A stretch of 25,125 nt of DNA. Source: Chiloscyllium plagiosum (lineage: Eukaryota). This document shows positions 2,311 through 21,229 of the stretch, piece by piece. The notes under the pieces are model-generated. The model was not told the DNA's origin. It saw only the letters and a program-made list of their open reading frames with translations, and ran no database searches. Positions within the stretch are counted from its first letter, which is position 1. Every line of letters starts with the position of its first letter. The translations under genes and the position numbers were made by a program. Location of the stretch: NCBI RefSeq assembly GCF_004010195.1, contig NC_057752.1:10200247-10225371 (forward strand), in the 5' to 3' direction.

Positions 2311-2741
2311 CATTTGAAGACACTTCCTGCACATATGGCTACCCGGGTCACAGCAATGTTCTTGGAATTCCCACATAACTTAGATTGCGTACTGGAGAGG
2401 TTGGAGTTGCCCTGCCGTTATTCAACTAGATAATACGCCTTAATACCTTTTTTAAAGAAAGGAAACACTCATCAGGTTATCAGATCCATTCCATTGATGT
2501 CACTTAAATATGGATAAGTTAACTGAATATTTTACTTCACCCTTCTAAGCAAGTTGAAATGTTTAATTTCCCAGCTCCTTAGGCTAGCTCCCTAACTTTA
2601 GATTTGGGAAAGCAAAGCTACGGTACTCGCCAGCTGATCCTGTAATGTCACAGTCTGAATTGTTTTTCTCGTTTTCCAAACTTGAATGCGCTCAGGTCTG
2701 CTGCAGCTGCTGATTGATGCATCAGACAAGGTGAATAAGAA

Positions 2742-2785
2742 AGAGCTCTGAAGAAGAGTCATATGGGACTTGAAACATTAACTTT
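2742..2785 (+). ncRNA. Minimal type I hammerhead ribozyme-like motif (partly decayed)
   Basis: Stem I AGAGCT(2742-47)/AACTTT(2780-85); core CTGAAGA 2748-54 plus one extra A; stem II GAGTC(2756-60)/GACTT(2767-71); GAAA 2772-75; then CA and UH=TT at 2778-79. Confidence 0.6.
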
Positions 2786-2880
2786 GTTTCTCTCTCCACA
2801 GATGCTGCCAGACCTGCTGAGTTTTTCTGCCGTTTTCTGTTTGTTTCAGATTTCTGACATCTGTAGTATTTTGATTTTAC
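2742..2880 (+). mobile_element. Short Penelope-like-derived dispersed element, copy 1
   Basis: CTGAAGAAGAGTC..GAAACATTAAC..CTCTCCACAGATGCTGCCAGACCTGCTGAGTTT..GATTTC. Homologous copies lie at 9029-9106 (+) and 14311-14419 (-). The Penelope assignment rests on the hammerhead motif. Confidence 0.7.
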
Positions 2881-3499
2881 TTAGATTTAGAAAATATTAT
2901 TTAAAAAATAACATGGATTTTTTTTTAGTAGAAGTCTAATTTTAAACAATACTCAATATGCAAGTATGGTCTTAAGGCAAAGAGAGCCTATGTATTGCAT
3001 TGAAACCTGTTGTACAAGGGCAACCTTGAAGGCTGTTTAATGTCTCATAGTATTCCACAATGCAACATATGCTGTACACAGTGAGCCATATATTACTGTG
3101 ATATGGCCAACTTTGTATTTGCATGACTTGAAAATGGATGTTTTACTTGGCAGTATGTTGGTAAATTAGATATGATTTGCACTCTGTATGTTAGTGATAC
3201 ATGATACATTGATTCCAAGGTGATGTTAATCAGCAAAATAAAATTGATATCAGTGTGTAGCTTCCAGCAGCAGTCACTGGAGAGATAACAAGATTAGGAT
3301 CCAAGGGTAATTTCTTCCCTTCCCACCCCAATCAAGTGGCACTGAGGTTAACATAAATCATTGTAGGCCTATGCTTGAACTCAAACCAGGAATTACTGAT
3401 TTGAGATAAGATCATAGAATCTAGTGATCTGTATGATCCAGTCACTTAACAGACCCTCTAACCAAAACATGCGCAGGCATTGGTTGTATTGCCTGCCAT

Positions 3500-4080
3500 C
3501 TTGAGTGCTGATGTGAGCCCAGCCCTGCTTCTTTTTGGGAAGATCTGCCAAATTAAGTGCCACTCAAGTCCAGTGGCAGGTCCTGGAATCAGGGCCCCAA
3601 AGGCTACCTTCTCAAAGGCTGGCAGCTATTTTACACAACAATGCCAGTGTTGGCTGCTGTTCATTCTACACTCATCCAAGATCTAGGCTGGACCCAGATA
3701 CATAGGTGAGTGATAGTGAGGGGGGGAAGCGGGGGGCATTTGTGCACTAGTGGACTAGGTACACAGCAGCAGTGATAGGAGTGGGTGCCTCTTCCTCTCT
3801 CTCAGAAGTTCTTGACCCCATCCTAATAGGGTCCCTCAATTAGATACTGAATACCTTTGAGGGAATACCGCCCCCCCCCCCACAACAAGTGGCATTAATT
3901 GCCCATTTAAAGTGCTCAGTTGGCTGTGGGGAAGGAAGGCCGTCCATGGGCTTTCCTACTTTGGACTTAAGGTGGAAAGTGGGAAAATGGAAGAGCTCCC
4001 ACCCACTACCCTCCAGTCTAATATAACGCCTCCCACCCCACCATTTCCAAACTCACCACAATACATAACAAAATTCCACT
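3500..4080. repeat. Probable degenerate non-autonomous interspersed repeat with internal inverted motifs
   Basis: GC-richer block inside the AT-rich intron. GCCAAATTAAGTGCCCACTCAAG (~3548) loosely mirrors CAAGTGGCATTAATTGCCC (~3886). Boundaries are uncertain. Confidence 0.3.
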
Positions 4081-4624
4081 CTGTTTTCTTGCATTGTGCA
4101 ATTCAATTAGTTATTTTTCAACACTGTGCTATCAGAAAGGAGATTTCTAAATCAAGTCAAATTCAGGTGCATTTGGGTTACCATTTGTGCCACACATGCT
4201 CCAAGTTTGACAATGCTTGAGACTCTCTGCTGGAAGCTTAAAGTCAAAAGATGATAGCAATTGATTTGTAAGAAGAAAATTGGCAGCATGCCTAGTTTTA
4301 AAAGAACTGGGCAGGGTGGAGTGTAAAAACAGGCATCCTATCCATTACTACCATCTTTCTCCCACCCGGGGGGACAATTACATTCAGCCCGTGGTCTTAT
4401 TATATTTCAGAAATTGACATTGTTCTACATCTGCTGTTATAAAGTGGAATCAAAAACAGTTGACAATAAATTCAAAAGTGCACCAGACTACAACCAATGC
4501 CATTTGTTGAAGGGTGTGAAACCTTGCCACATGTCAAATCTGTGTTTAACATTCTAACAGTCAAAATCAAAGCACACCTTCTTGTCCATTGTTACTTTAA
4601 TCATAAACTAGTGAGCAATACTTA

Positions 4625-4657
4625 CTTATTAATTCTCTCTAATGCATTTCCTTGCAG
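4625..4657 (+). promoter_or_regulatory. 3' splice acceptor of the final intron
   Basis: Pyrimidine-rich tract ending TTTCCTTGCAG (AG at 4656-4657), with branch-like CTAAT/TTAAT upstream. Protein similarity begins right after it (YFSRTDR). Confidence 0.85.
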
Positions 4658-6265
4658 TATTTTTCTAGAACTGATCGTTTGCTTAAACACAGAAGAATGT
4701 GCCACGAAAATCAAGGGAAAGCTTCTGGCAAAAACCCAGCTATGAAAACAGAGCCAATCATACTCGCAATCAATGCAGAAAACAGTTTCCTGTCACCTCA
4801 AAAAGACATAATTAATCCAAGGAAAAAAGTTAAAGCTGCAGAGAAGCCGGCATTGGCAACCCTTGATAATGAGGAGACCGGTAACCCAGCAGAGGTTAAG
4901 ATGGATAAAGGTGAATGTGTAGAATATTACACCAGCAGCTTGAAGGTGAAGGATGAATACAAAGTGGAGCAGTGCTCACTTGTGATCGCACATTCTTCAC
5001 AGACTGATGATCACCTCGGGGAAGCATATCAGAATCAGATGAACCTGCATCCACCAAAGCTTGTTCTGAAGAAGGTAAGCCCCCCAAAAAATCAAAAGAC
5101 AGCAGAAGAGTTGGCTCAAACCTTGCCTGTTTCTGGCAACTTTGATGCCACAAAAGTCAACAAATACACCTATGCTATGGTAGACAACCCTGACCTTCTG
5201 ACAATGGAGGGACCTGGTGCTGATCAGGGCCAAGATGCTTCACGCAAACCAGGAGGCAACAGCAACTATGATGATGCAATGCAGTTTGTAAAGAAGAAGA
5301 GATTTTTGCAAGGGACTAGCAGCACCAGCAGAGAGTATGCCTTAACTGTAGGCCAGATCCCAATCCAGCCAGCTGTAACACAGGCAGCTAGCACGTCTGT
5401 TGGGGACACCAGTGGTAGCACACCAATGCTGGGGCAACCTGGCAACACTGATCCGAAAAGCAGTCAGGACAAAAGTGGGATTCCTGACGAAGTTTTGCAG
5501 ACGCTGCTGGACCACTACACCAACAAGGCAAATGGCCAGGTTCCGTTTTCTGTCAATGATACCCAAGTCTCCTCAAATATAACCGTGAGCTCTACGGACA
5601 TTACTAATGTGCCTCCATCGGAGCGAGTCAACGAGAGTTCCCAGCCAGCAGCCACAGACAACTGTAACATGCTCCATGAGTATTCAAAGTTCCTCCAACA
5701 AGCTTTGGAAAGGACCTGCCACAACGATAGCTACTCGGCCGAGCAAGGACTTGCATATGAGACTGAAACTCACCCCCTAACTGGAAGTCTTCCAGTGCAG
5801 CCTCTGTTTTCTACTCTAGAACGACAGGTTTTTGCAACCATGGTTACCCAGCATGGCTTCAGACCTGAAGTGGGTTCCCCTTTGAGGATACCTTCACAAA
5901 AGACTCAGTACAGTTTATTAACTGGTGAATCCCAGCATCCTTTTGCTTTTATACCGACTGTAACAAGCAGCAACAGCATTTCTGCACCTCCTGATTTCAT
6001 AGAGCAGGTTAATACACAGAAGAAACGAGAGGAACCCCCGGCTCACCACAATCACCAAATGGACGCATTTGGTCAAGACTCTAGGTTCGCGGCTCCTGGA
6101 GGAGAAATGACTCCGTCGTTTAACAACAGTACTGGTGGACAGGTGAACTTAAGGATCCGACAAGGCAGCTCAGACTTCTCGGAGTTTTCTTTGGTAAATG
6201 TGCCAGAGGCCAGGGATCAAATGAGTGCCTCATCAGATGTCACAGGGGGCCAAGCCTTTAGGTGA
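4658..6265 (+). CDS. ZNF148: Final coding exon of zinc finger protein 148 (ZBP-89)-like transcription factor: second half of the last C2H2 finger plus the long C-terminal region
   Basis: Begins YFSRTDRLLKHRRMCHEN (HxxxC finger end). Contains the ZNF148 hallmark motifs KVKDEY, HPPKLVLKK, NYDDAMQFVKKKRFLQ, SREYAL, IPDEVLQTLLDHY, NMLHEYSKFLQQALERT, GQVNLR and FSEFSLVNV. TGA at 6263-6265. The ORF track start at 4652 (TTG) is intronic. Confidence 0.9.
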   Translation, partial: YFSRTDRLLKHRRMCHENQGKASGKNPAMKTEPIILAINAENSFLSPQKDIINPRKKVKAAEKPALATLDNEETGNPAEVKMDKGECVEYYTSSLKVKDEYKVEQCSLVIAHSSQTDDHLGEAYQNQMNLHPPKLVLKKVSPPKNQKTAEELAQTLPVSGNFDATKVNKYTYAMVDNPDLLTMEGPGADQGQDASRKPGGNSNYDDAMQFVKKKRFLQGTSSTSREYALTVGQIPIQPAVTQAASTSVGDTSGSTPMLGQPGNTDPKSSQDKSGIPDEVLQTLLDHYTNKANGQVPFSVNDTQVSSNITVSSTDITNVPPSERVNESSQPAATDNCNMLHEYSKFLQQALERTCHNDSYSAEQGLAYETETHPLTGSLPVQPLFSTLERQVFATMVTQHGFRPEVGSPLRIPSQKTQYSLLTGESQHPFAFIPTVTSSNSISAPPDFIEQVNTQKKREEPPAHHNHQMDAFGQDSRFAAPGGEMTPSFNNSTGGQVNLRIRQGSSDFSEFSLVNVPEARDQMSASSDVTGGQAFR

Positions 6266-6559
6266 AATGATTTGGTCATAAAACTTGGGATCATAATACA
6301 TGCATTACTGTTTTTGAATTGCTCAACAAAGAAAAACCTATCGATTTTTTTTTTAATTTTTAGAGAAAATCTATTAGTGATTTTACCAGGAAGGTATTTT
6401 GAAGTTCAGTACCGCTGTGCATTTCCCTTCTCTGCTGATACATGTTTGCAGGCTGGCACAGAAAGGGGATATTGATCTTGTCTGTGTATGACTTTCTCCA
6501 AGCCCTCTGTATTTCTGCTTTATCAGAAACATTTGTCTGCCAGTAAAGAGAGCTGATAG

Positions 6560-6880
6560 AAAATAACCCTGAGACTGGCATTGATACAGGTTCAATAGTT
6601 ATAACAAAACTGGCATGTATTCAGTTGCAGTAAATACCTGGATAGTGGCATTTCAGCTGATCAAATAATTACTCTAATACTGACACTAGTACAGATCCAA
6701 TAATTACCTCAGTACTGTATGTGTACAGCTCAAATAATGTCCTAGCATTGGAATTAATACAAATTTAATAATTACCACAATGCTATTTTTTAATCACGTG
6801 TTAATTATACAGAAATGGACATAATGCATTTCCAGTAAAGAACTGGCATTGATGCAGATGGAATAATTGCCCTTAATTTA
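6560..6880. repeat. Ancient, diverged ~35-bp tandem repeat related to the main satellite, in the proximal 3' UTR region
   Basis: Successive ~34-35 bp units such as AATAACCCTGAGACTGGCATTGATACAGGTTCAAT and AATTACTCTAATACTGACACTAGTACAGATCCAAT align with ATTAACCCTGATATTGACATTGATCCTCTTCTGAT. Confidence 0.6.
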
Positions 6881-6884
6881 ACTC

Positions 6885-7190
6885 CACTCATGAGATGTAG
6901 GCATCCTTGTTAGGCCAGCATTCATTGCCCGTCACTGTTTGCTGATGTGGGAGTAATGGTGAGTCACCTTCCTGAATCCACCTGAATGCATTACGATGCC
7001 ATTTCAGAGGGCAGTTGAGAGGCAACCACATTGCTGTGGATCTGGAGGTGCATTATTGGCCAGACTGGGTAAAGACAGCAGATTCCCTTTTCCAAAGACG
7101 TTAACAAACCAGGTGGGTTTTTGCAACAATCCAGTTGCGTGGTTATCATTACTGATGCTGGAGTTTTGTTCCATATTTTATTTAATCAAT
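6885..7190 (-). mobile_element. Deu-domain SINE, copy 2 (tRNA head not recognisable)
   Basis: Same tail (GGCCAGCATTCATTGCCC) and body (CCATTTCAGAGGGCAGTTGAGAGGCAACCACATTGCTGTGG..GGCCAGACTGGGTAA) as 1981-2310. Confidence 0.75.
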
Positions 7191-7274
7191 CAAGCTCTCC
7201 TGTAACATAACCTTTATGCTACTATACCTCCTTTAGTAATATGAACATTTATCCATTACCCTGAAATTCTTATT

Positions 7275-7370
7275 TTTACTTGTTCATGGGATGTGGGTAT
7301 CGCTGACTCGGCCAGCATTTATTATTGATCCTTAAGTGCATTGGAGAAAGTGATCATGAGCTGCCTTGAA
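7275..7370 (-). mobile_element. 3' tail fragment of the same SINE or its partner LINE
   Basis: TTCATGGGATGTGGGTATCGCTG..GGCCAGCATTTATT matches the tails at ~1990 and ~6890. Confidence 0.65.
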
Positions 7371-7434
7371 AATTGATTTTAAAAATTTCAATGTTTACCT
7401 TGTTACCGATATTATTCAGAAATGAAAAAAAATT

Positions 7435-8760
7435 GCATCATTGTAGGAGGCCAATTAACCCATCTTGCCTCTGCCAGTACTTCTAAATTTCATGATCTCT
7501 CCCTTTCCATTTTGGTGAGTAGCTTAATTTTTTGCCCTCCATTAACTAATACAATTGCCAGTTGAAATAGATTTTTTTTTACTTTATCAACTGCCTTTAT
7601 CAAACTTGTTTGTGGTTTCATCTGTTCTAGTGAAAAGAGCCCTAAGTTTTTAGTCTGTCCTCCTAGCTAAAGGCTTTTAATCTTGTTATCACCTTCATGC
7701 ACCGTGCCTGTGGACGTGTCATCCTTCCAAACATTGCGTTTCCAAAACTACATATTAGGCCATGAGAATCAGTGATCTGTATAGATATAGAATTATCTCT
7801 TTGTACTCCATCGCCCATTTATAAAATTTTACATTTATGTACCTGAAATCAGTCTCGACTCCCTTAAAATGTTACCAGTTAGCATAAATTCTTTCTACTT
7901 ATCCTTCTATTCAATAGTACAACTTCACATTTTCTCACATTTAAATTTTATCTGACATCTATGCATCAAATCTACAAACCAGTCGACATCCTCCTGGAGT
8001 CAATAACTGCTATCATCACAATTAATTTGTATGCTGCCAGTTTTTATGTTGTCTGCATGTTTAACATTGTGTCCCTTTAAATCCAAATCATGTATATATA
8101 GAGAGAGGAACAGTAATCCATACTATAGTGACCACTAGTGGCCACCAAGGTATGCCTTCAGTTCACTGAAATGTGATTAATAATAATCTCTGCTTTCTGT
8201 CCTGGAGCCAATTTCTTATTCATGCTGCTTCACTGCCAAATCATACCATAGAGCTAATTTTCATGTATTGGCATTGCAGATCAGTGATAGGTGCCTGACT
8301 CACATTGTTACGGTTTGACTCTATCACTCTCAATGTTCTTAACTTAGTCAACAGGCTTCCCATGTGACATCTTATTGTTTGTGTTGGGCATCAGTGCACC
8401 TATTAGATACTGCATGCCCTTTATCAATTCCCTTCACCCTATCCTGAACTGCCCCAACATGACAGTCTTTTAAGCATCCATGTAGTCCAAATTATCCCAG
8501 ATGTTTCCAGGTGAGTCTTAATTTTTATTATGCATTATGAAATCCAGCAGCTAGCCCACAACAAATGTATGGTCTATATTATCAAACTGATCACTTTCAA
8601 ATCGTTTTCAATCCAAAAAGTAGAGTCCTTAGGCATAAGATCTAGATCCCAAGATGACTGGGAAATTGTCAGAGCCTCTGCCTGTTCCTGCTGATGTGAG
8701 GAGTATTCCAGAATGCAAACATTGGGCTTTTCTGATTATTTCATCATCTTTTAAAATTAC
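7435..8760 (-). mobile_element. Very old, degenerate CR1-type LINE
   Basis: 3'-end-like GTAGGAGGCCAATTAACCCATC at ~7443. Colinear remnants follow (ACTTCACATTTTCTCACATTTAAATTTTATCTG, TGTTGTCTGCATG as a decayed FADD region, CCAATTTCTTATTCATGCTG) that parallel the better-preserved CR1s in this window. Confidence 0.55.
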
Positions 8761-9028
8761 ATTACCTCCTTAACAATATTTCTCTATGTAATAATAACAC
8801 CAATGTCGCCTTAAATGGCTGCAGTAATAACCCTAATATTGACAACAATCCTGCTCAATAATAACCCTTATATTGACATAGATCATCCTCTGATTATTAC
8901 CCCTTATATTGACATTGGTCCTCTTGCGATGTTAACCCTGATATTAACATCTACTGTGATAAAAAGCCTGCAATTGATATTGACGCAGCTCCAACATTAA
9001 CTGTAATACAGACATTGATCCTCCTGTA

Positions 9029-9106
9029 GAAAGAGTCTTCCCACAGATGCCAGAACTGAGTTTTTCCAGCAATTTGTTTTTGTTCCTGATTTCCAGCTTC
9101 CACAGT
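9029..9106 (+). mobile_element. Short Penelope-like-derived element, copy 2 (internally deleted, abuts the gap)
   Basis: AAGAGTC..CCACAGATGCCAGAACTGAGTTTTTCCAGCAATTTGTTTTTGTTCCTGATTTCCAGC aligns to 2754-2870. The hammerhead part is mostly deleted. Confidence 0.65.
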
Positions 9107-9606
9107 NNNNNNNNNNNNNNNNNNNNNNNNNNNNNNNNNNNNNNNNNNNNNNNNNNNNNNNNNNNNNNNNNNNNNNNNNNNNNNNNNNNNNNNNNNNNNN
9201 NNNNNNNNNNNNNNNNNNNNNNNNNNNNNNNNNNNNNNNNNNNNNNNNNNNNNNNNNNNNNNNNNNNNNNNNNNNNNNNNNNNNNNNNNNNNNNNNNNNN
9301 NNNNNNNNNNNNNNNNNNNNNNNNNNNNNNNNNNNNNNNNNNNNNNNNNNNNNNNNNNNNNNNNNNNNNNNNNNNNNNNNNNNNNNNNNNNNNNNNNNNN
9401 NNNNNNNNNNNNNNNNNNNNNNNNNNNNNNNNNNNNNNNNNNNNNNNNNNNNNNNNNNNNNNNNNNNNNNNNNNNNNNNNNNNNNNNNNNNNNNNNNNNN
9501 NNNNNNNNNNNNNNNNNNNNNNNNNNNNNNNNNNNNNNNNNNNNNNNNNNNNNNNNNNNNNNNNNNNNNNNNNNNNNNNNNNNNNNNNNNNNNNNNNNNN
9601 NNNNNN
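9107..9606. other. Assembly gap (500 N)
   Basis: Run of exactly 500 N. Confidence 1.
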
Positions 9607-10530
9607 AATGCAGTTTAATTTATTAGTCCTACCTTGTTCCTAACTGCTTGACTCGCTTCTGTTCTCACATGTAGCAGTCTCAGATTAATCTCTTTCCTCA
9701 CTATCTCCTTGGGTCCCAACCCCCCTTTTACTAGTTTAAATCCTCCCGAGCAGCTCTAGCAATTTTCCCTGCCAGTATATTAGTCCCCTTCCAATTCAAG
9801 TGCAATCTGTCCTTCTTGTACAGGTCACTTCTACCCCAAAAGAGATTCCAATGATTCAAAAATGTGAATCCTTCCCCCATACACCAGCTCCTCAGCCATA
9901 CATTCATCTGCTCTATTCTCCTATTCCTGCCCTCGTGAGCTTGTAGCGCCGGGAGTAATCCAGATGTTATTGCTCTCGAGGACCTCCTTTTTAAATTCCT
10001 GCCTAACTCTCTGTAATCTCCCTTCAGAACCTCAATCTTTTCCCTTCCTATGTCATTGGTTCCAATGTGGACAATGACCTCCTGCTGGCCCCTCTCCCCC
10101 GTGAGAACATCCTGCATCCTCTCTGAGACATCCTTGATCCTGGCACCAGGGAAGCAACACACCATTCTACTCTTTCGCTGCTGGCCACAGAAACGTCTGT
10201 CTGTATCTCGGACTAGAGAGTCCCCTAACACAATTGATCTCTTGGAATCCGACGGACCCTTCGTTGCATTAGAGCCAATCTCAATACCAGAAACTTGGCT
10301 GTTTGTGCTACGTTACCCTGAGAATCCATCAACCCCTACATTTTCGAAAAGAGCATACCTGTTTGAACTGGGTATATCCACAAAAGACTCCTGCACTTGC
10401 TGCCTACCTCTCTCTCCTTTCCTGGAGTTAACCCATCTATGTGACTGTAACTGAGACTTTCCCCCTTTCCTATAACTGCCATCCATCACATACTTTTGCT
10501 GTTACAAATTCCTCATCACTTCTAACTGTC
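9607..10530 (-). mobile_element. CR1 LINE fragment containing ORF1 with an SGNH/GDSL esterase domain (ORF1 disrupted)
   Basis: ORF 9731-10231 has LGDSLVR, FPGA, HIGTND and DRLH (SGNH blocks I, II, III, V). The same frame continues upstream (SNRYALFE) with TAA stops at 10313-10315 and 10502-10504. 5' truncated at the satellite junction (~10530). Confidence 0.9.
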
Positions 10531-11206
10531 CTTCTCTGATATTTAACCCAGATATCGACATTGATCGTTCTCTGATATTTAACCCAGATATCGACATTGA
10601 TCCTTCTCTGATATTAACCCAGATATCGACATTGATCCTTCTCGGATATTAACCCAGATATCGACATTGATCTTTTTCTGATATTTAACCCAGATATCGA
10701 CATTGGTCGTTCTCTGATATTTAACCCAGATATTGACATTGATCCTTGTGATATTAACCTCATATTGTAATTCATCCTCCCTGATATTAATCCTGATATT
10801 GACATTGACACCCCTGATATTAACTCTTCTATCAACATCGATCCACCTCTGATATTAACCCTTATATCGATGTTGTTCCTCCTCCGATATTAACCATGTT
10901 TGACATTGATGCTCCTGCAGTTTTAACCCTGAAATTGATATTGATCCTGCTGCAATAATAACCCCAATATAGGCAGTGAGACTCCTCTGAAAGTAACCCT
11001 GATATCGACAGTGATCCTCTTTTGGTATTATCCATGGAATTGACTTTGATCCTTCACCAACAAAAAAACCTGACACAGATTTTGTTAATCCTGCAGTATT
11101 AATTCGATAGTTAACATTGATTCTGCTTCAATATTAACTGTGATATCAATGTTGATCCTCCTGTGTTATGAACCCTGATAACCACATTAATGCTCCTCTG
11201 GAATTA

Positions 11207-12868
11207 TAGATTCATAGAGATAGCACAGAAACAGACCTTTCGGTACAGCTCATCCACGCTGACCAGATATCCCAACCCAATCTAGTCCCACCTGCCAGCA
11301 CCTGGCCCATATCCCTCCAAACCCTTCCTATTCATATACCCATCCAGATGCTTTTTAAATGTTGCAATTCTACCAGCCTCCACCACTTCCTTTGGCAACT
11401 CATTCCATACATGTACCATCCTCTGTGGGAAAAGGTGCCCCTTAGGTCTCTTTTATATCTTTCCCCTCTCACCCTAAACCTATGCCCTCTAGTTCTGGAC
11501 TCCCCCACCCCAGGGAAAAGACTTTGCCTATTTATCCTATCCATGCCCCTCATGATTTTGTAAACTTCTATAAGGTCACCCTTCAGCCTCCTACGCTCCA
11601 GGGAAAACAGCTCCAGCCTGTTCAGCCTCTTCCGATAACTCAAATCCTCCAACCCTGGCAATATCCTTGTAACTCTTTTCTGAACCCTTTTACAACATCT
11701 TCCTGATAGGAAGGAGACCCAGAATTGCACGCGATATTCCAACAGTGGTCTAACCAATGTCCTGTACAGCCGCAACATGATCACTCAACTCCTGTACTCA
11801 ATACTCTGACCAATAAATGAAAGCATATCAAATTCCTTCTTCACTATCCTATCTACCTGAGACTACATTTTCAAAGAGCTATGAACCTGCACTCCAAGGT
11901 TTCCTTGTTCAGCAGCACTCCTGAGGACCTTACCATGAAGTGTATAAATCCTGCTAAGATTTGCTTTCCCAAAGTGCAGCACCTCACATTTACCTAAATT
12001 AAACTCCATCTGTCACTCCTCAGCCCGTTGGCCCATCTGATTAAAATCACATTGTAATCTGGGATAACCTTCTTCGCTGTCCACAACACCTCCAATTTTG
12101 ATGTCATCTGCAAAATTACTAACTATCCCTCTTATGCTCACATCCAAATCATTCATATAAATGACGAAAAGTAGTGGACCCAGCACCGATCCTTGTGGCA
12201 CTCCACTGGTCACAGGCCTCCAGTCTGAAAAACAACCCTCCACCACCACCCTCTGACTTCTACCTTTGGGCCAGTTCTGTATCCAAATGGCTAGTTCTCC
12301 CTGTATTCCATGAGATCTAACCTTGCTAATCAGTCTCCCATGGGGAACCTTGTCGAACGCCTTACTGAAGTCCATATAGATCACGTCCACCGCTCTGCCC
12401 TCATCAATCCTCTTTGTTACTTCTTCAAAAACTCAATCAAGTTTGTGAGACATGATTTCCCGAGCACAAAGCCATGTTGACTATCCCTGATAAATGTATT
12501 TCCAAATACATGTACATCCTGTCCCTCGGGATTCCCTCCAACAATTTGCCCACCACCAATGTCAGGCTCACTGGTGGATAGTTCCCTGGCTTGTCCTTAC
12601 CACCTTTCTTAAACAGTGGCACCCCGTAGCCAACCACCAGTTTTCTGGCACCTCACCTGTGACTATCGATGATACAAATATCTCAGCAAGAGGCCCAGCA
12701 ATCACTTCCCTAGCTTCCCACAGAGTTCTAGGGTACACCTGATCAGGTCCTGGGGATTTATCCACTTTTATGCGTTTCCAGACATCCAGCACTTCCTCCT
12801 CTAATATGGACATTTTGCAAGACATCATCATCTGTTTCTCTACATTCTATATTCTACATTCTATATCT
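11207..12868 (-). mobile_element. 5'-truncated CR1 LINE (RT domain to 3' tail), relatively young but frameshifted
   Basis: ORF pieces KSPGPDQVYPR, KPGNYPPVSLT, YMDFSKAFDKVPH, SGVPQGSVLGPLLF, FADD, LYRTLVRPLLEY and SLERRRLKGDLIEVYKI. 3' tail at ~11207. Possible TSD TGGAATTA (11199-11206) / TGTAATTA (12869-12876). Confidence 0.95.
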
Positions 12869-14310
12869 TGTAATTAACCATGATGTCAACATTGATCCTC
12901 GACGATATTCCCCCTGATGACAACATTGATCAGATGAAATTAATCCTGTAATTGGTATTGATGCTGTTGTAATATTAAACCTGATGTCAATATTGATCCT
13001 CCTTCACTATTACCTTGATATTGACATTGGACACTCTCCAGTATTAACCCTGGTATTGACAGTAATCCTCCTCCGATATTAACCCTACGTTGATCCTATT
13101 CTGATATTAACCCTGATATAAACATTAATTCTCTTTTGATTGAACCCTGAACCCAGAATTAGCCCTGATGTTGACATTGATCTTCTTCTGTATTACCCCT
13201 GAAGCCAACATTAATCCTCTTGTGACATTAACACAGATCCTCCTCCAATAATAACCCTGTTATTGACATTGATTCTCATCCAATAGTAACCCTGTTATCA
13301 AGATTGATCTTCTCATGACAGTACCTTTAATGTCGACATTGATCCTCCTTCGATATTAACCCTGCTATCGACATTATTCTTTCTGCGATGTTAACCCTGA
13401 TACTAACATCAACGTGGATCCTCCTCCAACATTTGCTGGGATTCACATTTGCATTGGTGCTATTATAACCCTGATATCACTTTAATTCTCATGCAGGGTT
13501 AACCCCAGTCCTCCTGTGATGTTAATCCCGATAATAATATTGATCATGCTGCGATGGTAGTGACATTGATATCAACGTTAATTTTCCTGGAGTATTAACC
13601 CTGAGATTGATGTTGATCCAACTCCAAGAAAAAAACACTGGTATCCACTGGTAATCCATCTGCAGTTATAACCTTGAGATTGATTTTGATTCTACTCCAA
13701 TAATCATCCAGAAAGCAATGTGAAGCATCCTGCACTTTTAACCCTGAGATTGATTTTGACCATACTCCAATTTCAACCCAAATCTAGCCTCTGGTTCTTC
13801 TCCGATTCTAACCTTGATCTTGATGCTATTGTGAATATAAATGCTTATATCAACATTGATCCTCCTCTGATATTAACCCTACTGTTCACATTGATCCTCT
13901 TGTGATAATAGCTGTGTGTTTGACATTGATCCTTCACCCACAATAATCCTGAAATCAACATTGATACTTCTGCAATATTATGTCTATTATTAACATTGAC
14001 AATGCTCCAATATTAACCCTGATATTGGCCATTAGCCTCCTCAGATCTTAACCCTGTTTTCAACATTAATCTTCCTCAGATGTTAATCCTAATATTGACA
14101 TTGATGTTCTGATATTAACGCTGATGGTGACATTGATCTTCCTCTGATATTAACCCTGATTACCATTATTAATCCTCCTCTGATAGTTACCATGTCATCA
14201 AAATTGATCTGCCTCCAATTGTTACCCTAATATCAATATTGATCATTTTGTAATTTTAACCCAGCTACTAACATTGATCCTTCTGCAGTATTAAATCTAT
14301 AATTGTCATT

Positions 14311-14419
14311 GACACAAAAACAGAAATTGTTGGAGAAACTCAGCAGGTCTGGCAACATATGTGGAGAGAAAACAGAGTTAACGTTTTGGCTTCAGTGACC
14401 CTTCTTCAGAACTCTTCCA
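14311..14419 (-). mobile_element. Short Penelope-like-derived element, copy 3, inserted in the satellite
   Basis: Reverse complement reads AGAGTTCTGAAGAAGGGTCACTGAAGCCAAAACGTTAACTCTGTTTTCTCTCCACATATGTTGCCAGACCTGCTGAGTTTCTCC. Flanked by AATTGTCATT (14301-10) and AATTGTTATT (14420-29), a likely TSD. Confidence 0.75.
14374..14415 (-). ncRNA. Minimal type I hammerhead ribozyme-like motif (core G12 to A, probably inactive)
   Basis: Minus strand: AGAGTT-CTGAAGA-A-GGGTC..GCC-AAAA-CG-TT-AACTCT. Perfect 6-bp stem I, decayed stem II, and palindromic AACGTT at the stem III position. Confidence 0.55.
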
Positions 14420-16753
14420 AATTGTTATTCACGCTGCTCCAATAATAGCCCCGATATGAACATTGACCCTCTGACAATATTAAGCCTGATGTTGATATTA
14501 CTGGCTGCAGAATCAATTTTAATACTTTTGTTAATATTGGTGCTCAGTCAAAATCAGTTTCAGGGTTAATATTGCAAGAGGATTAATGTTGATATCAGGA
14601 ATCAATGTTCTCCTGCACCAACAGTAATTCTGAAATCTACATTGATACTCCTGCAGTAGTAATTCTGTGATTGACAGTGATGCTGCTCTGATATTATCCC
14701 AGATATCAACATTGTAAATCCTGTAAAATTACCATTGATGCTGTCATTGATCCTTTTGTGATATTAATCCTGATATCGAAATTGATACACTTATGATATT
14801 AACATAGACGTCAACATGGATCCTTGTGATATTAATCCTCTGACCACATTAGCCCTGATATTGATACTAATCCTTCTCCAGTATTAACCCTGGTATTAAC
14901 ATTGATCCTCTTCCGATATGAATCCTGATATTGATACCTATCTTCTGATATTAACGGTGATATCAGCATTGATCCACATTCAGTAGTGACCCTGATCTCA
15001 ACATTGATCTTCTTCAATATTACTCTGATATTGAAATTGATCCTTTTGTGATTTATGATCCCCTGATATCGACAATAATCCTCCTCTGAAATTAACCCCA
15101 GTATGAACATTAATACTCCTTCAGAATTAACACTGATGGCGACAATAATCCTCCTCTGAAACTAACCCTGATATGAACGTTAATACTTTTCCAGAATTAA
15201 CACTGATGGCGACATTAATCATCCTCTGAGATTAATTCTGATTTTGACATTCACCCTCTTGAGATATTTACTCATGTATTGGTACTGATCTTCCTCCGAT
15301 ATTAACCCAGGTATTAGCATTAATCCTCCTCTGAAATTAACCCTAATATAGATATTGATACTCATCCAGAATTAACCCTGACATAGACATTGATTTTCTT
15401 CGAATATTAACCCAGGTATCTGCATTGATCCCCTTGCAATATTGTGATTTTGACATTCATCCTCTTGAGATATTAAGTCAAATATCGGTATTGATCCTCT
15501 GATATATTAACCCTGATATTGACATTAATCCTCTTGTGATTTGAACCCTGATATCAAGATTAATTCTCCTGTGAAATTAACCCTGATTAGACATTAATAC
15601 TTATCCAGAATTAATCCTGATGGTGACATTAAAAATTCCTCTGAAATTGACCTCAATATAGATGTTAATACCTTTCCAAAATTAACCCTGACGGTGACAT
15701 TAATTCTCCTGCAAAGTTAACTCTTGATATCCATGTTGATCTGCTTGGGATATTAACCTTGATATTGATGTTGATTCTCCTCTGAAATAAACCCTGATAT
15801 CGACATTGATCTTCTGATATTAACCCAGATATAGATATTGATCATCTTCTGATGTTAACCCTGATGCCAACCCTGATCCTTCTGTGAGTTCAACTGTGAT
15901 ATCAACATTAATTCTTTTCCAGAGTATTGACATTGATCTTCTTTGATATTAACCCTGATATTGCCATTGATCCTGTTGTGATTTGAACCCTGATATCCAC
16001 ATTGATATTCCTGCGATATGAACCTTGATGATGACATTGCTTTTCTTCTGATATTAACCCTGATATCAAACTTAATGATCCTCCAAAATTAACTCTGATG
16101 TTGCTATTGGTCCTTCTGCAATATCAAACCTGATTACAGCTTTGATCTTCAGATATTAACCCCTGTTTTCAATATTGGTCCTCTTCTGACATTATCTCTG
16201 TGATCAATGTTGATCCAGTTCCAAAGTAAACATGATATAGACATTGATTATCCTCTAATAGTACCCTTGATATTGACATAGAACATTCTGGAATACTAAC
16301 CCTTGTAACGACATTAATCCTGCTGTGATATTAGACCTGGTAACAACATTGATCCTCTTGTAAATTGAACCCTGATATTGAGATTATTCCTTCTTCAGAA
16401 TTAACTTTGATCCTCCTCTGATATTCATGTTGATATTGGCATTGATTATCTTCTGATAATAACTCTGACATTGACATTGTTCTTCTTCTGATATTAACCC
16501 TGATATTGACATCATCTTCCTCTGATTATAACCCTGGTATCAATATTTGTCCTGTATTGATTTGATCTCAGATATTGACATTAATCTTCTATGGAATTAA
16601 CTATGATATTGACATTGATCCTCTTGCAATACTAACCCGCATATTGACTTTTATCGTCTTCTGATATAGACCGTGATAATGACCTCGATCCTCTCGTGAC
16701 TTGAATCCTGATATTGCTATTAATCCTCCTCCAGAATTAAACCTGTTGGTGTC

Positions 16754-17313
16754 TGTTATTGACCAGACTGGATCCTTCTGAAAGTTTTCAAGAAGGTTGC
16801 CTAGACCGTAACATTTTCTTATTTTAAAGGAAGGTGCAATGCAATTGGTTAAACCACTTGGCTTTAAGCAAAACAACTTATTTAAACACTACAGTTGAAA
16901 CATGAACAAAAGAAAGTGGAATTTAGAATAACGTAACTATTGGAAAGTTAACCTGCCTGATACAGTGACTATTACTAATTAATTATTCCAATGCAGTAAC
17001 ATAGTGAAAACACACCCCTTAGCAAAAAGATAAATTGAAACACAGATTTTTACAGGCAGGAGGGGACAACATCCAGAGAGATTTCAGGGACAGTCCATCA
17101 GGAGTCCTTTACTGAAGCTTGCAAAGCTTCTGGACTGGCACATTGTATGACTGCTACAGCTAAAAAGAAACTAGAAAAAACTTAAACTGGGAGATCTGGC
17201 CCCTCCCTTTCCATTGTTAAATTCCCTCGACTCTTCGGCAGCTCTACCTTTACAACCTCAGTTCAAAAAAACCAAGGACAAAATAACCCTTTTAAAGTGT
17301 CAGCATTGTCGCA
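16754..17313. mobile_element. Probable solo LTR (~560 bp) inserted in the satellite
   Basis: Unique non-coding insert starting TGTTA and ending TGTCGCA (TG..CA), flanked by GTGTC (16749-53) and GTGAC (17314-18), a 5-bp TSD with one mismatch. It interrupts a monomer at GGTGAC. Confidence 0.7.
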
Positions 17314-18677
17314 GTGACACTTAACCCTGAAGTTAACTCTGATATTGATATTGTTGTGATATTAACCCTGATAGCAATAGTGATTCTCCTCTGAAATGAA
17401 AGCTGATCTCACCATTAAACCTCCTCTGGAATTAACCCTAATATCGATATTGATCCCATGTGATTTGAATCCCAATATTGACATTAATCATCCTCTGAAA
17501 TTAACTTTGATTTTGACATTCATCCTCTTGAGATAATAAGTAAAATATTGATATTGGTCCTCCTCCGATATTTACCCAGGTATTGACATTGATCCTACTC
17601 CACAATTAACCCTGATATTGACATTGAATCTCTTGTGATTTGAGTCCTGATATTGACATTAATCCTCCTCTGAAATTGACATTGATTTTGACATTCATTC
17701 TGTTGTGATATTACGTTAAATATTGGCATTGCCCTCCTCTGATATTAACCCTGGTATTGACATTGATTTTCTTGGGATTTGAATCCTGATATTGACATTA
17801 ATCCTCTCCTGAAATTAACACTGATTTTGGCATTCATTCTCTTGTGATATTATCGCTGATATCAACATTGATCATCTTATGATATTTCAGTCAATCCTAT
17901 TCTGATACTCACCCTGATGTCAACATTGCATATTCTTCAGTTATTAACCCAGATTTCAGTATTGATCCTGCTCTGATAATAATTTTTGTATCGACATTCA
18001 TCCTCCTCCAACATCAACCCAGATCCTCTTATTAACACTGATGCCACACTGCATTGATCCTCATGTTGACTTTTATCCCCTTGTGATATTCACCTTGCTT
18101 TCGATGTGGATCCTTTTGGGATGTCAACCCTGATATTGACATTGGTCCTCAAGTGATGCTAACCCTCAAAACAACTTTGATCCTCCTCTAATATTAAGCC
18201 TGATCTTGACGTGGATCCTCTTGTGATTTGAATCATGATCTAGACATTAATCCTCCAACAGAGTTAGCCCTGATATCAACATTGATCCTCTTTTGATATT
18301 ATTCCTAACATCGACATTAATCCTCCTCCGGTATTAACTCTGATGTTGACATTGACCTTCTTCCATATTAATACTGATATCAACATTGACCATCCTCTGA
18401 TCTTAACCCTGATATTGATATTGGTCGTCTTCTCATATTAAAGCTGATGTTGACATTAATCACTGGTGATTTGAATCCCGATATCAGCATTGATCCTCCT
18501 CTGAAATTAACCTTCATTTTGACATTCATCCTCAGATATTAACTCTGATGTCAACGTCAATCTTCCTCTAATATTAACCCTGATATCAACATTGATCATC
18601 TTGTTTTATTAACCATGAGATTGATATTAATCCTCCCCTGATTTTACCCCAAAGGCAACATTGATCAACCTGTGACA

Positions 18678-19111
18678 ATAAGTATTGGGAACAGAAGGAG
18701 GCCATCTGGCCCTATTGAGCCTGCTCCGCCATTCAAGATCTTTTTGGCTGATCTTTTTGCGGCCTCAACTCCACTTACCTGCCCTCTCACCATAACCCTT
18801 AATTCCTTTACTGTTCAAAAAATTATCTATCTTAGCTTTAAAAACATTTAATGAGGTAGCCTCAACTACTTCGCTGGGCAGGGAATTCCATAGATTCATC
18901 TGGGTGAAAAGGTTCCTTCTCAATTCACTCCTAAATCTACTCCCCCTAATTTTGAGGATATGCCCTCTTGGCTGAGTTTCACCTGCCAGTGGAAACATCC
19001 TCTCTACTTCTATCCTATCTATTCCCTTCATAATTTTTTATGTTTCTATAACAATCCCCTCATTCTTCCAAATTCCAATGATTATAATCCCAGTCTACTC
19101 AGTCACTCCTC
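18678..19111 (-). mobile_element. CR1 LINE 3' fragment
   Basis: Minus ORF 18765-19031 (MKGIDRIEVERMFPLAGE..RGHILKIRG..NLWNSLP..GIKGYGERAGKWS) is the CR1 ORF2 C-terminus, followed by 3' UTR/tail. Confidence 0.9.
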
Positions 19112-20410
19112 CTGTTAACTCTGATATTGATAGTCCTTTGGAATTAACCCTGATCAACATTGATCTTCTGTTATTAACCCTGATGTCGATCTTGATCATC
19201 CTGATAGTAACATAATTCCTCCTCTAGCAATTTCCCTGATTTCGATATTAATCCTCTTCAGAAATTAACCTTATATTGACATTAATCTACCTCTGATATT
19301 ACCCTGATATCGACATTGATCTTTTGATATTAACCCTGATATTGACATTGATCATCTTCTGATATTAACCCTGATATTGACATTGATCATCTTCTGATAT
19401 TAACCCTAATATTGACATTGATCATCTTTTGATATTAACTGTGATGTCAGTATTGATCATCTTCTGATATTAACCCTGATATCGACATTAATCTTCTTCT
19501 GATATTAACCCTGATGCCGACATTGATTGTCTTCTGATATTAACTCTAATGTCGACGTTGATCATCTTCTGATATTAACTGATATCGACATTGATCTTCT
19601 TGTGATATTAATCCTGATATTGACATTGATCATATTCTGATATTAATCTTATATCGACAGTGATCCACCTTCGCTATTACCCCGATAGTGACATTATCTT
19701 CTGATATTAACCCTGATATCAGTCTTGATCTTCCTGCATTATTAACACTGATATCGACATCAATTCTCTTATGATACTGACCTGCTTATATCGACTTTGA
19801 ACCTCTTCTGATATTAACCCCTGATCTCAATGTGGATCCTCTTGTGATTTGAACCCTGATATTGAGATTAATCCTCGTCCAGAAATTACACATATTGACT
19901 TTAATCCTTCTTTGATATTAACCCTGTTATTGACATTGATCCTCTTCTGATATTAACCCTGATATTGACATTAATCCTCTTCTGAAATTACCCTTGATGG
20001 CAATATCGATCCTTCTGTGAAATTAACTTTGCTATTGATGATGATACTGCTCTGAAATTAACCCTGGCGTTGATCATCTTCTGGTGTTACCCCTGATGGT
20101 GACTTTGATCCTCCTGTGATATTAACGCTGATATTAAAAATCCTCCAAAATTAACCCTGACATCGACATTGATCCTCCACTATTAACACTGATGTCAGTG
20201 TTGATCATCTTCTGATAGTACCCCCATGGATTGGCATTGACCCTCCTGTGATATGAACACTGATATCAACTTCGATCTTCTGATATTAATCCTGATATTG
20301 ATATTGATCCTGTTCTGATAGTAACCCTGTAATCAACATTGATCCTCCTGCAATTGTAATCCTGAGATCACCATTGATCCTTCCTTGATATCACCCCAAT
20401 ATTGACATAA

Positions 20411-20766
20411 AACCATTAGAAATGGTAGCAGGAGGAGGCGGTTTGACCCCTTGAGCCTGCTCCATCATTCACTAGGATCATGGTTGATCTGTCTTTCCTC
20501 ATGTCCACTTTCCTGCCTTGTCCATATAACCCTGATTCCCCGACTAATCAAGAATCTATCACAGCCTTAAATATACATAAGGCCTCTGCCACAACATCTC
20601 TCTGTGGAAAGGAGTTCCAAAGGTTCACAACCCTCTGAGTGAAGAAATTCCTCCTCATCTCCGTCTTAAGTTGGGCCCCTTTATTCTGAGACGATGCCCT
20701 CTCATCCTAAACCCTCCCACAAGGAGAAACATCCTCTCAGCATTTACCCCGTCAAGTCCGTTAAGA
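20411..20766 (-). mobile_element. CR1 LINE 3' fragment
   Basis: Homologous to 18678-19030 (GGAGGCGGTTTGACCCCTTGAGCCTGCTCCATCATTCA..CCCTCTGAGTGAAGAAATTCCTCCTCATCTC). Confidence 0.85.
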
Positions 20767-21229
20767 GGATCCCCCTCCAATATTACACTTGTCATTGGCT
20801 TTATCTTGGGATATTGACCCTTATATCAGTGTTGATTGTCTTGTGATATTAACCCTAATATTGATATTGATCCTCCTGTGATATTGATCCTGATGTTGAC
20901 ATTGATTCTCGTGAAATTTATGCATCATCCAATATTGCATTGATTCTCACCTCAATGCTTCTCCATGAATTTACCTTTATATTGGCAAAAAAAAAGGTCT
21001 CCCCAGTAACTGCTCTGATACTTTTTTTTGCCCTCCAATAATTAACTTGATCTTGACATTGACTCTTCTTTAGTGATTGCCCTGATACCAACACTGATGC
21101 TGTACATTACTTACCCTGATCCTGGTATTCACGTCACTCCAGTCATTACCCCAACACTTCCATTGTTCCAGCTCCGGTCATTACCAGCATTGTTCTCCCT
21201 GCAATAATGACCTGTTTCCAGACAACCCT

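Follow-up and report, generated by a model that had tools for sequence, protein, structure and literature searches.

A decayed minimal hammerhead motif in a short, probably Penelope-derived repeat within the last intron of a shark ZNF148-like gene

The window, the whole 25,125-nucleotide stretch of Chiloscyllium plagiosum DNA analysed here, carries the last coding exon of a ZNF148-like gene and three copies of a dispersed repeat of about 140 bp. We focus on the intronic copy that lies upstream of this exon (copy 1). The features to which we refer are as follows.

2740..2880, plus strand: copy 1, probably a solo terminal-repeat stub of a Penelope-like element (PLE), with a hammerhead and a 3' part of about 100 nt (rise in repeat depth, alignment)
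2742..2747, plus strand: copy 1, stem I, 5' strand; C2746 is mismatched with A2781 (reading and fold)
2748..2754, plus strand: copy 1, core C3-A9, CUGAAGA (reading, descriptor scan)
2755, plus strand: copy 1, extra nucleotide A2755 after A9, described as typical of PLE minimal hammerheads (PMC4209133)
2756..2771, plus strand: copy 1, stem II of 5 bp (2756-2760/2767-2771) with a 6-nt loop; the closing pair is G.U, not G10.1-C11.1
2772..2775, plus strand: copy 1, GAAA (direct reading, descriptor scan)
2776..2777, plus strand: copy 1, 2-nt spacer CA, apparently a decayed CG; the palindrome for a dimer stem III is lost
2778..2779, plus strand: copy 1, UH, here TT (U16.1, H17=U); predicted cut at 2779/2780
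2780..2785, plus strand: copy 1, stem I, 3' strand (fold)
2786..2880, plus strand: copy 1, 3' part of the repeat, most shared over 2797-2815
4658..6265, plus strand: last coding exon of the ZNF148-like paralog (identity to the bamboo shark record)
about 9019-9106, plus strand: copy 3, a core-like remnant fused to the 3' part, with an internal deletion of about 30-40 nt
14419-14314, minus strand: copy 2, 78% identity over 102 nt

The open reading frame at 4658-6262 is 100% identical to the bamboo shark record "zinc finger protein 148-like" and 46% identical to shark ZNF148. The host gene is therefore the paralog: ZNF148 itself is ruled out, and the same full match to the ZNF148-like record resolves an ambiguity with ZNF281 (Protein Atlas). 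The last-exon acceptor is found about 1.8 kb downstream of copy 1, which is in sense. No upstream exon of the gene was found in the window; as only the last exon is present, copy 1 sits in the last intron. The first-pass annotation had placed the motif in sense within a ZNF148 intron; orientation and intronic position hold, but the gene is the paralog. No X21 reads fall on the unique flanks of copy 1, and the X18 contig over 2550-2821 is not counted as expression, the RNA nature of X18 being only guessed. Predicted ZNF148-like isoforms from three carpet sharks (P0001, P0002, and P0005) join an early exon straight to the last exon; they gave no zinc-finger Pfam match.

By direct reading of the letters, all core elements of a type I hammerhead lie in order at 2742-2785: the CUGANGA core, GAAA, and UH, together with stems I and II. 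A descriptor scan of both strands that allowed one stem I mismatch found copy 1 as its sole match in the window, compared with 0.005 matches per window in 200 dinucleotide shuffles; the descriptor had been relaxed to one mismatch after the strict version, free of stem I mismatches, gave 0 matches in the window. Reading and shuffles together confirm the hammerhead fold that had been proposed at these positions. The proposed stem I strands (2742-2747/2780-2785) also stand, although the C.A mismatch between 2746 and 2781 had been left unmentioned. The minimum free energy fold of 2740-2787 contains stem II and the outer 4 bp of stem I at -5.6 kcal/mol, with pair probabilities of 0.3-0.5 in general and 0.03 for the pair adjoining the cut. 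An Rfam scan returned no hammerhead match at E<=5; its snoZ112 match at 2725-2845 (E=1, 24 bits versus 40) was dismissed as chance. Just downstream of the motif, at 2787-2803 on the plus strand, a pyrimidine tract with CAG and then ATG runs in sense within the intron and is a possible cryptic acceptor.

Positions such as 10.1 and 11.1 follow hammerhead numbering. Copy 1 has three defects: the G10.1-U11.1 pair, a broken ACGU palindrome, and the C.A mismatch at the second pair of stem I. The closing pair is G-C in copy 2 and in L025, a metagenomic contig discussed below, and the palindrome at 15.2-16.2, which reads ACAU in copy 1, is ACGU in both; the extra nucleotide between A9 and 10.1 is present in all three. 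The calculated self-duplex energy is -3.5 kcal/mol for AACGUU versus +2.8 kcal/mol for AACAUU. Among contigs of run X1, T occurs at 2776 in 19% and G at 2777 in 20%, versus CA in copy 1; C at 2771, where copy 1 has U, accounts for 21% of the depth. From these contig variants we infer an ancestral CG at 2776-2777. Judged by the letters of its relatives, the family ancestor would have had G10.1-C11.1, lost in copy 1 through CpG decay. Because both decay products occur among the contigs, the G.U closing pair and ACAU fit CpG decay, as had been suggested for this copy; copy 2, moreover, keeps ACGTT.

Organism B carries an ortholog of the copy 1 insertion with 5/246 differences and organism C one with 7/272, most of those listed lying in the flank; the presence of the insertion there means that it is old and was damaged already. 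Organism B has at most 1 unlisted difference from copy 1 across 2550-2795, and at least two of the defects therefore predate the split. With three defects, a solo state, and an insertion common to two related organisms, copy 1 is old and probably inactive as a ribozyme, as far as its letters can tell. Intact minimal hammerheads are themselves described as inactive as monomers and weak as dimers (PMC4209133), dimer cleavage having been reported by Lunse et al. (as cited in PMC6765202). Copy 1 would ride passively in the intron, having decayed since insertion. Single-cell polyA RNA gave 706 X21 reads on the repeat, from 12,955,460 read (about 2% of X21), with both strands represented; none shows a pile-up of RNA ends at the cut, for which this type of library is a weak test.

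The window holds three copies of the repeat, as had been counted before: copy 1, copy 2 on the minus strand, and the internally deleted copy 3 on the plus strand. They are solo in 3/3 cases and all start within about 10 nt of the core; the hammerhead motif is retained in copies 1 and 2 only. In copy 2, stem I is perfect and both ACGU and the G-C closing pair are intact; its damage consists of a GAAA to AAAA change and a broken stem II. On either side of copy 2, at 14432-14420 and 14313-14301, there is a 13-bp duplication (11/13) that falls within a 35-bp satellite. For copy 1 the best candidate target-site duplication (TSD) matches at 8/10, and none is convincing. Past the cut site, copy 1 extends for about 101 nt and copy 2 for about 65 nt, a difference of about 36 nt that comes from two copies only. 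The stretch missing from copy 2, about 2845-2880 of copy 1, may be the optional "tail" of a PLE. The 3' end of copy 3 is interrupted by a 500-N assembly gap (9107-9606), and its 5' edge is ambiguous against the satellite.

Several other repeats share the window. The satellite, a long and degenerate minisatellite of 35-bp units, spans about 8800-20900; it contains one inverted block, near 14530-14600, as well as copies 2 and 3. A weak tail-like match at 7091-7130 (E=0.006) sits in a different repeat and is not counted as a copy. On the minus strand, 2217-2305 is tRNA-like with a 23-nt insertion (Rfam tRNA, 31.4 bits) and is probably the head of a tRNA-derived SINE, and 9731-10312 and 12013-12432 hold a GDSL-esterase-like ORF and an RVT_1 fragment, pieces that we take to be consistent with CR1/L2-type LINEs. 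In addition, 39 X21 RNA reads (agreement 0.98) from one other locus carry a core-like start fused to the 3' part before 2786; their internal deletion resembles that of copy 3.

We compared positions 2550-3100 of the window with four public runs at 80% likeness, including X1 (organism A) and X13 (organism B). Matching contigs number 45,970 in X1 and 44,986 in X13, which bears out the earlier description of a dispersed, abundant repeat of about 140 bp (about 46,000 matching genomic contigs). Word depth in X1 climbs from 5-6 in the flanking sequence to 1.2e4 at 2740-2758 and to 2.6e6 at 2797-2815; such depth ratios are not copy numbers. The core at 2797-2815 is probably common to several subfamilies; for both reasons, abundance is taken only as of order 1e5.

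The 5' boundary of the repeat clusters near stem I, in line with the shared boundary that the first-pass annotation had noted. Repeat depth is that of a single copy before 2740 and after about 2891 in both X1 and X13. Loose contig ends before 2747 (818 X1 contigs) agree at only 0.40, are A/T-rich, and weakly end in TTTCAGT, whereas those within the element return the element's consensus at 0.55-0.61 (figures among the matches listed, 24/656 rows). Since upstream ends agree poorly and internal ones well, related copies mostly have little sequence in common upstream of stem I, though mixed subfamilies could instead account for the low upstream agreement. Low-agreement ends occur in similar number at 2785 (720 contigs) and 2787 (890 contigs), so that some copies may start near the cut site. 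The boundary is about 35 nt upstream of the predicted cut and therefore is not made by cleavage; family copies keep the whole motif instead of starting at 2780, which suggests that they were copied from uncleaved RNA. Both L025 (1875-1890) and the loose ends before 2747 carry, at the 5' edge of stem I, a stretch rich in pyrimidines that terminates in CAG. This stretch recalls the intron end at helix I of the D. virilis Penelope (PMC4209133).

Joints between copies add to the picture of the family. Opposite-strand joints from 2747 to 2785-2793 occur in at least 20 X1 and at least 19 X13 contigs (among the joints listed, 15/113 rows). They place an inverted 3' part directly next to stem I, and belong to the family, not to copy 1. 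A head-to-tail joint, 2854->2750, also appears once among the joints listed, in X1 and at single-copy depth. At family level, inverted 5' copies as known from PLE terminal repeats (pLTRs) are thus present in two organisms, and a partial tandem in one.

A search for a PLE coding region sharing this end had also been proposed. A metagenome scan with a pattern of core, stem II, and ACGU gave contig L025 as its sole match, and here the motif lies 110 nt past the stop of an RT/GIY-YIG-like coding region whose RT and GIY-YIG Pfam scores are under the cut-off. L025 comes from a different organism and is a look-alike, with a tail that does not match the one of the shark repeat. When copy 1, copy 2, and L025 are aligned, 29/33 cells pair and 4/11 pairs change on both sides; 3 of these two-sided changes fall in stem I, which was absent from the L025 search pattern. 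Covariation as high arose in 12/500 shuffles, and the alignment has three sequences only. The core pattern gave 0 GTDB and 0 viral matches. Short-pattern matches at 18 viral and 6 GTDB loci were set aside as chance, with no likeness beyond the pattern itself, and a scan with the repeat tail gave 0 viral and 0 metagenome matches. Translations of the element compared with longer proteins gave 13 candidates, none at E<=10, which is weak evidence, and a tblastn search of the window with five PLE-like proteins found no match and no PLE protein remnant. A coding region of this RT/GIY-YIG-like type thus accompanies the motif in the look-alike only; peptide search and tblastn linked none to the shark repeat.

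We consider it probable that copy 1 is a short retrotransposed terminal-repeat (pLTR) copy of an endonuclease-bearing Penelope-like element. The layout, a minimal type I hammerhead as previously proposed, matches the PLE terminal repeats described in PMC4209133. A shark PLE protein would have nicked the intron and copied uncleaved PLE RNA from an internal start point. Reverse transcription would then have ended, or turned back, on reaching stem I: the RNA may itself start there (at a promoter or splice acceptor), or the cDNA may use stem I to prime itself. The outcome would be a hammerhead-headed stub with no need for ribozyme cleavage, and cleavage by the ancestral motif would require a dimer or the help of a protein. 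The PLE of the anole offers a precedent. Its reverse transcriptase is reported to start internally on the RNA, from two sites at least about 110 nt beyond the hammerhead region; one start is 111-118 nt into the ORF and the second gives an optional tail of 30-40 nt (PMC11167929). Unprocessed RNA is described there as the main substrate, cleavage as requiring the protein, and RNA ends at the cut as absent. Short solo terminal-repeat copies with minimal hammerheads were already interpreted in 2014 as probably truncated PLEs (PMC4209133), which makes a new class of element unnecessary: the motif is real, its kind is known, and this copy is decayed. Much of the first-pass interpretation survives, namely a PLE-type minimal type I motif in an abundant, non-coding, CpG-decayed repeat, but the label "retrozyme" is not supported, and a SINE would need a pol III head.

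An unlikely though still appreciable alternative is that the family is a self-standing non-autonomous mini-element, a SINE-like partner of a PLE, with short master loci, their own promoter, an RNA of about 140 nt, and a PLE protein acting in trans. It would draw on the very high abundance, the sharp 5' edge with single-copy depth before 2740, and the start of all 3 window copies within about 10 nt of the core; non-autonomous PLE derivatives are also reported (PMC8557442; bioRxiv 10.64898/2026.07.22.740005). Against it, no promoter is evident in the unit, Rfam identifies no pol III head, and PLE promoters are described as lying in the pLTR, upstream of or across an intron (PMC8557442). A reverse transcription start near the RNA 5' end, as the anole element suggests (PMC11167929), would also yield the same stubs from ordinary PLE transcripts. 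In its boldest form, which we regard as doubtful, sharks would harbor a self-propagating mini-element of about 140 nt, in the order of 100,000 copies; the start of its RNA, or a splice point in it, would fall exactly at stem I, and a PLE protein would copy this RNA in uncleaved form. If true, stem I would be an end and turn-back signal for reverse transcription, not part of a catalyst, and the role of PLE hammerheads could be tested by counting 5' ends and inversion points.

A non-LTR retrozyme, in which tandem units are cut by the hammerhead, circularised, and reverse transcribed, is very unlikely. Retrozymes are defined by at least 2 tandem units (PMC7229834; bioRxiv 10.64898/2026.07.22.740005), and they have been reported in one chondrichthyan genome (bioRxiv 10.64898/2026.07.22.740005). 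The head-to-tail joint listed for X1 would fit. On the other side, the window copies are solo and show no two tandem units each with a hammerhead, the 5' boundary sits off the cut site, and the motif is minimal, not canonical: a canonical hammerhead has stem III and loop 1-loop 2 contacts, whereas this one has no stem III and no Rfam hammerhead match. The 706 X21 reads, a weak test, point the same way. As for a SINE, Rfam finds no pol III (tRNA/5S/7SL) head on 2740-2880.

It is more improbable still that copy 1 is a domesticated intronic ribozyme that regulates the ZNF148-like pre-mRNA, in the manner of the conserved amniote intronic hammerheads (PMC6155905). Its sense orientation in the last intron and its retention in three related organisms would suit such a role, but retention is expected at about 2-3% divergence, no dimer partner lies nearby, and two or more of the structural defects are older than the organism B split. 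Finally, chance resemblance in an unrelated repeat, for which the lack of an Rfam match and the weak fold might speak, is effectively refuted by the rarity of matches in shuffled windows, the invariant core, and the compensated stems across the copies and L025.

Copy 1 itself is of little consequence, being a single decayed stub whose kind is already described. The family is of modest importance. We found no paper on shark PLE hammerheads at such scale, though the supplements of bioRxiv 10.64898/2026.07.22.740005 may list this shark family. With so many copies, the family lends itself well to asking why PLE copies have their end at stem I instead of the cut site. It also implies that many shark introns carry sense hammerhead-like motifs, most of them probably inactive.

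The closest known relatives are the minimal hammerheads in the pLTRs of metazoan PLEs, including Xena, Poseidon, and Neptune of fish (Cervera & De la Pena 2014, PMC4209133). As in that account, the shark motif has a type I core, an extra nucleotide after A9, and no stem III but a palindromic 15.2-16.2 in its family; most copies are likewise solo and dispersed, as expected of truncated PLEs, with some opposite-strand pairs. Copy 1 differs in being decayed. The shark repeat looks far more abundant than the roughly 4,000-9,000 given for coelacanth and Xenopus, by measures that differ; cartilaginous fishes go without mention in the accessible text of PMC4209133, and a listing for the whale shark includes Penelope elements (PMC8455134). 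Animal retrozymes, which are derived from PLE pLTRs (bioRxiv 10.64898/2026.07.22.740005) and are defined in the 2020 paper also by canonical hammerheads and by monomeric linear and circular RNAs (PMC7229834), share with the shark unit a non-coding, type I, PLE-pLTR-related nature and dispersed monomers, introns included; the shark unit is, in contrast, solo, minimal, and decayed. Poseidon of Anolis carolinensis (PAc; Frangieh et al. 2024, PMC11167929) has an autonomous ORF, whereas none is linked to the shark repeat; the two look alike in the stretch of roughly 100-150 nt between hammerhead and internal RT starts (putative in the shark), in an optional 30-40 nt tail that the shark repeat may have, and in that no RNA ends were seen at the cut site. 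PLEs routinely show inverted 5' copies and palindromic junctions (PMC8557442, PMC3846280). Copy 1 is unlike PLE insertions with an inverted pLTR, tail, and TSD in having neither an inverted arm nor a clear TSD, but the shark family resembles them in its inverted 5' junctions centred on stem I, the two 3' end lengths of copies 1 and 2, and the TSD-like flanks of copy 2.
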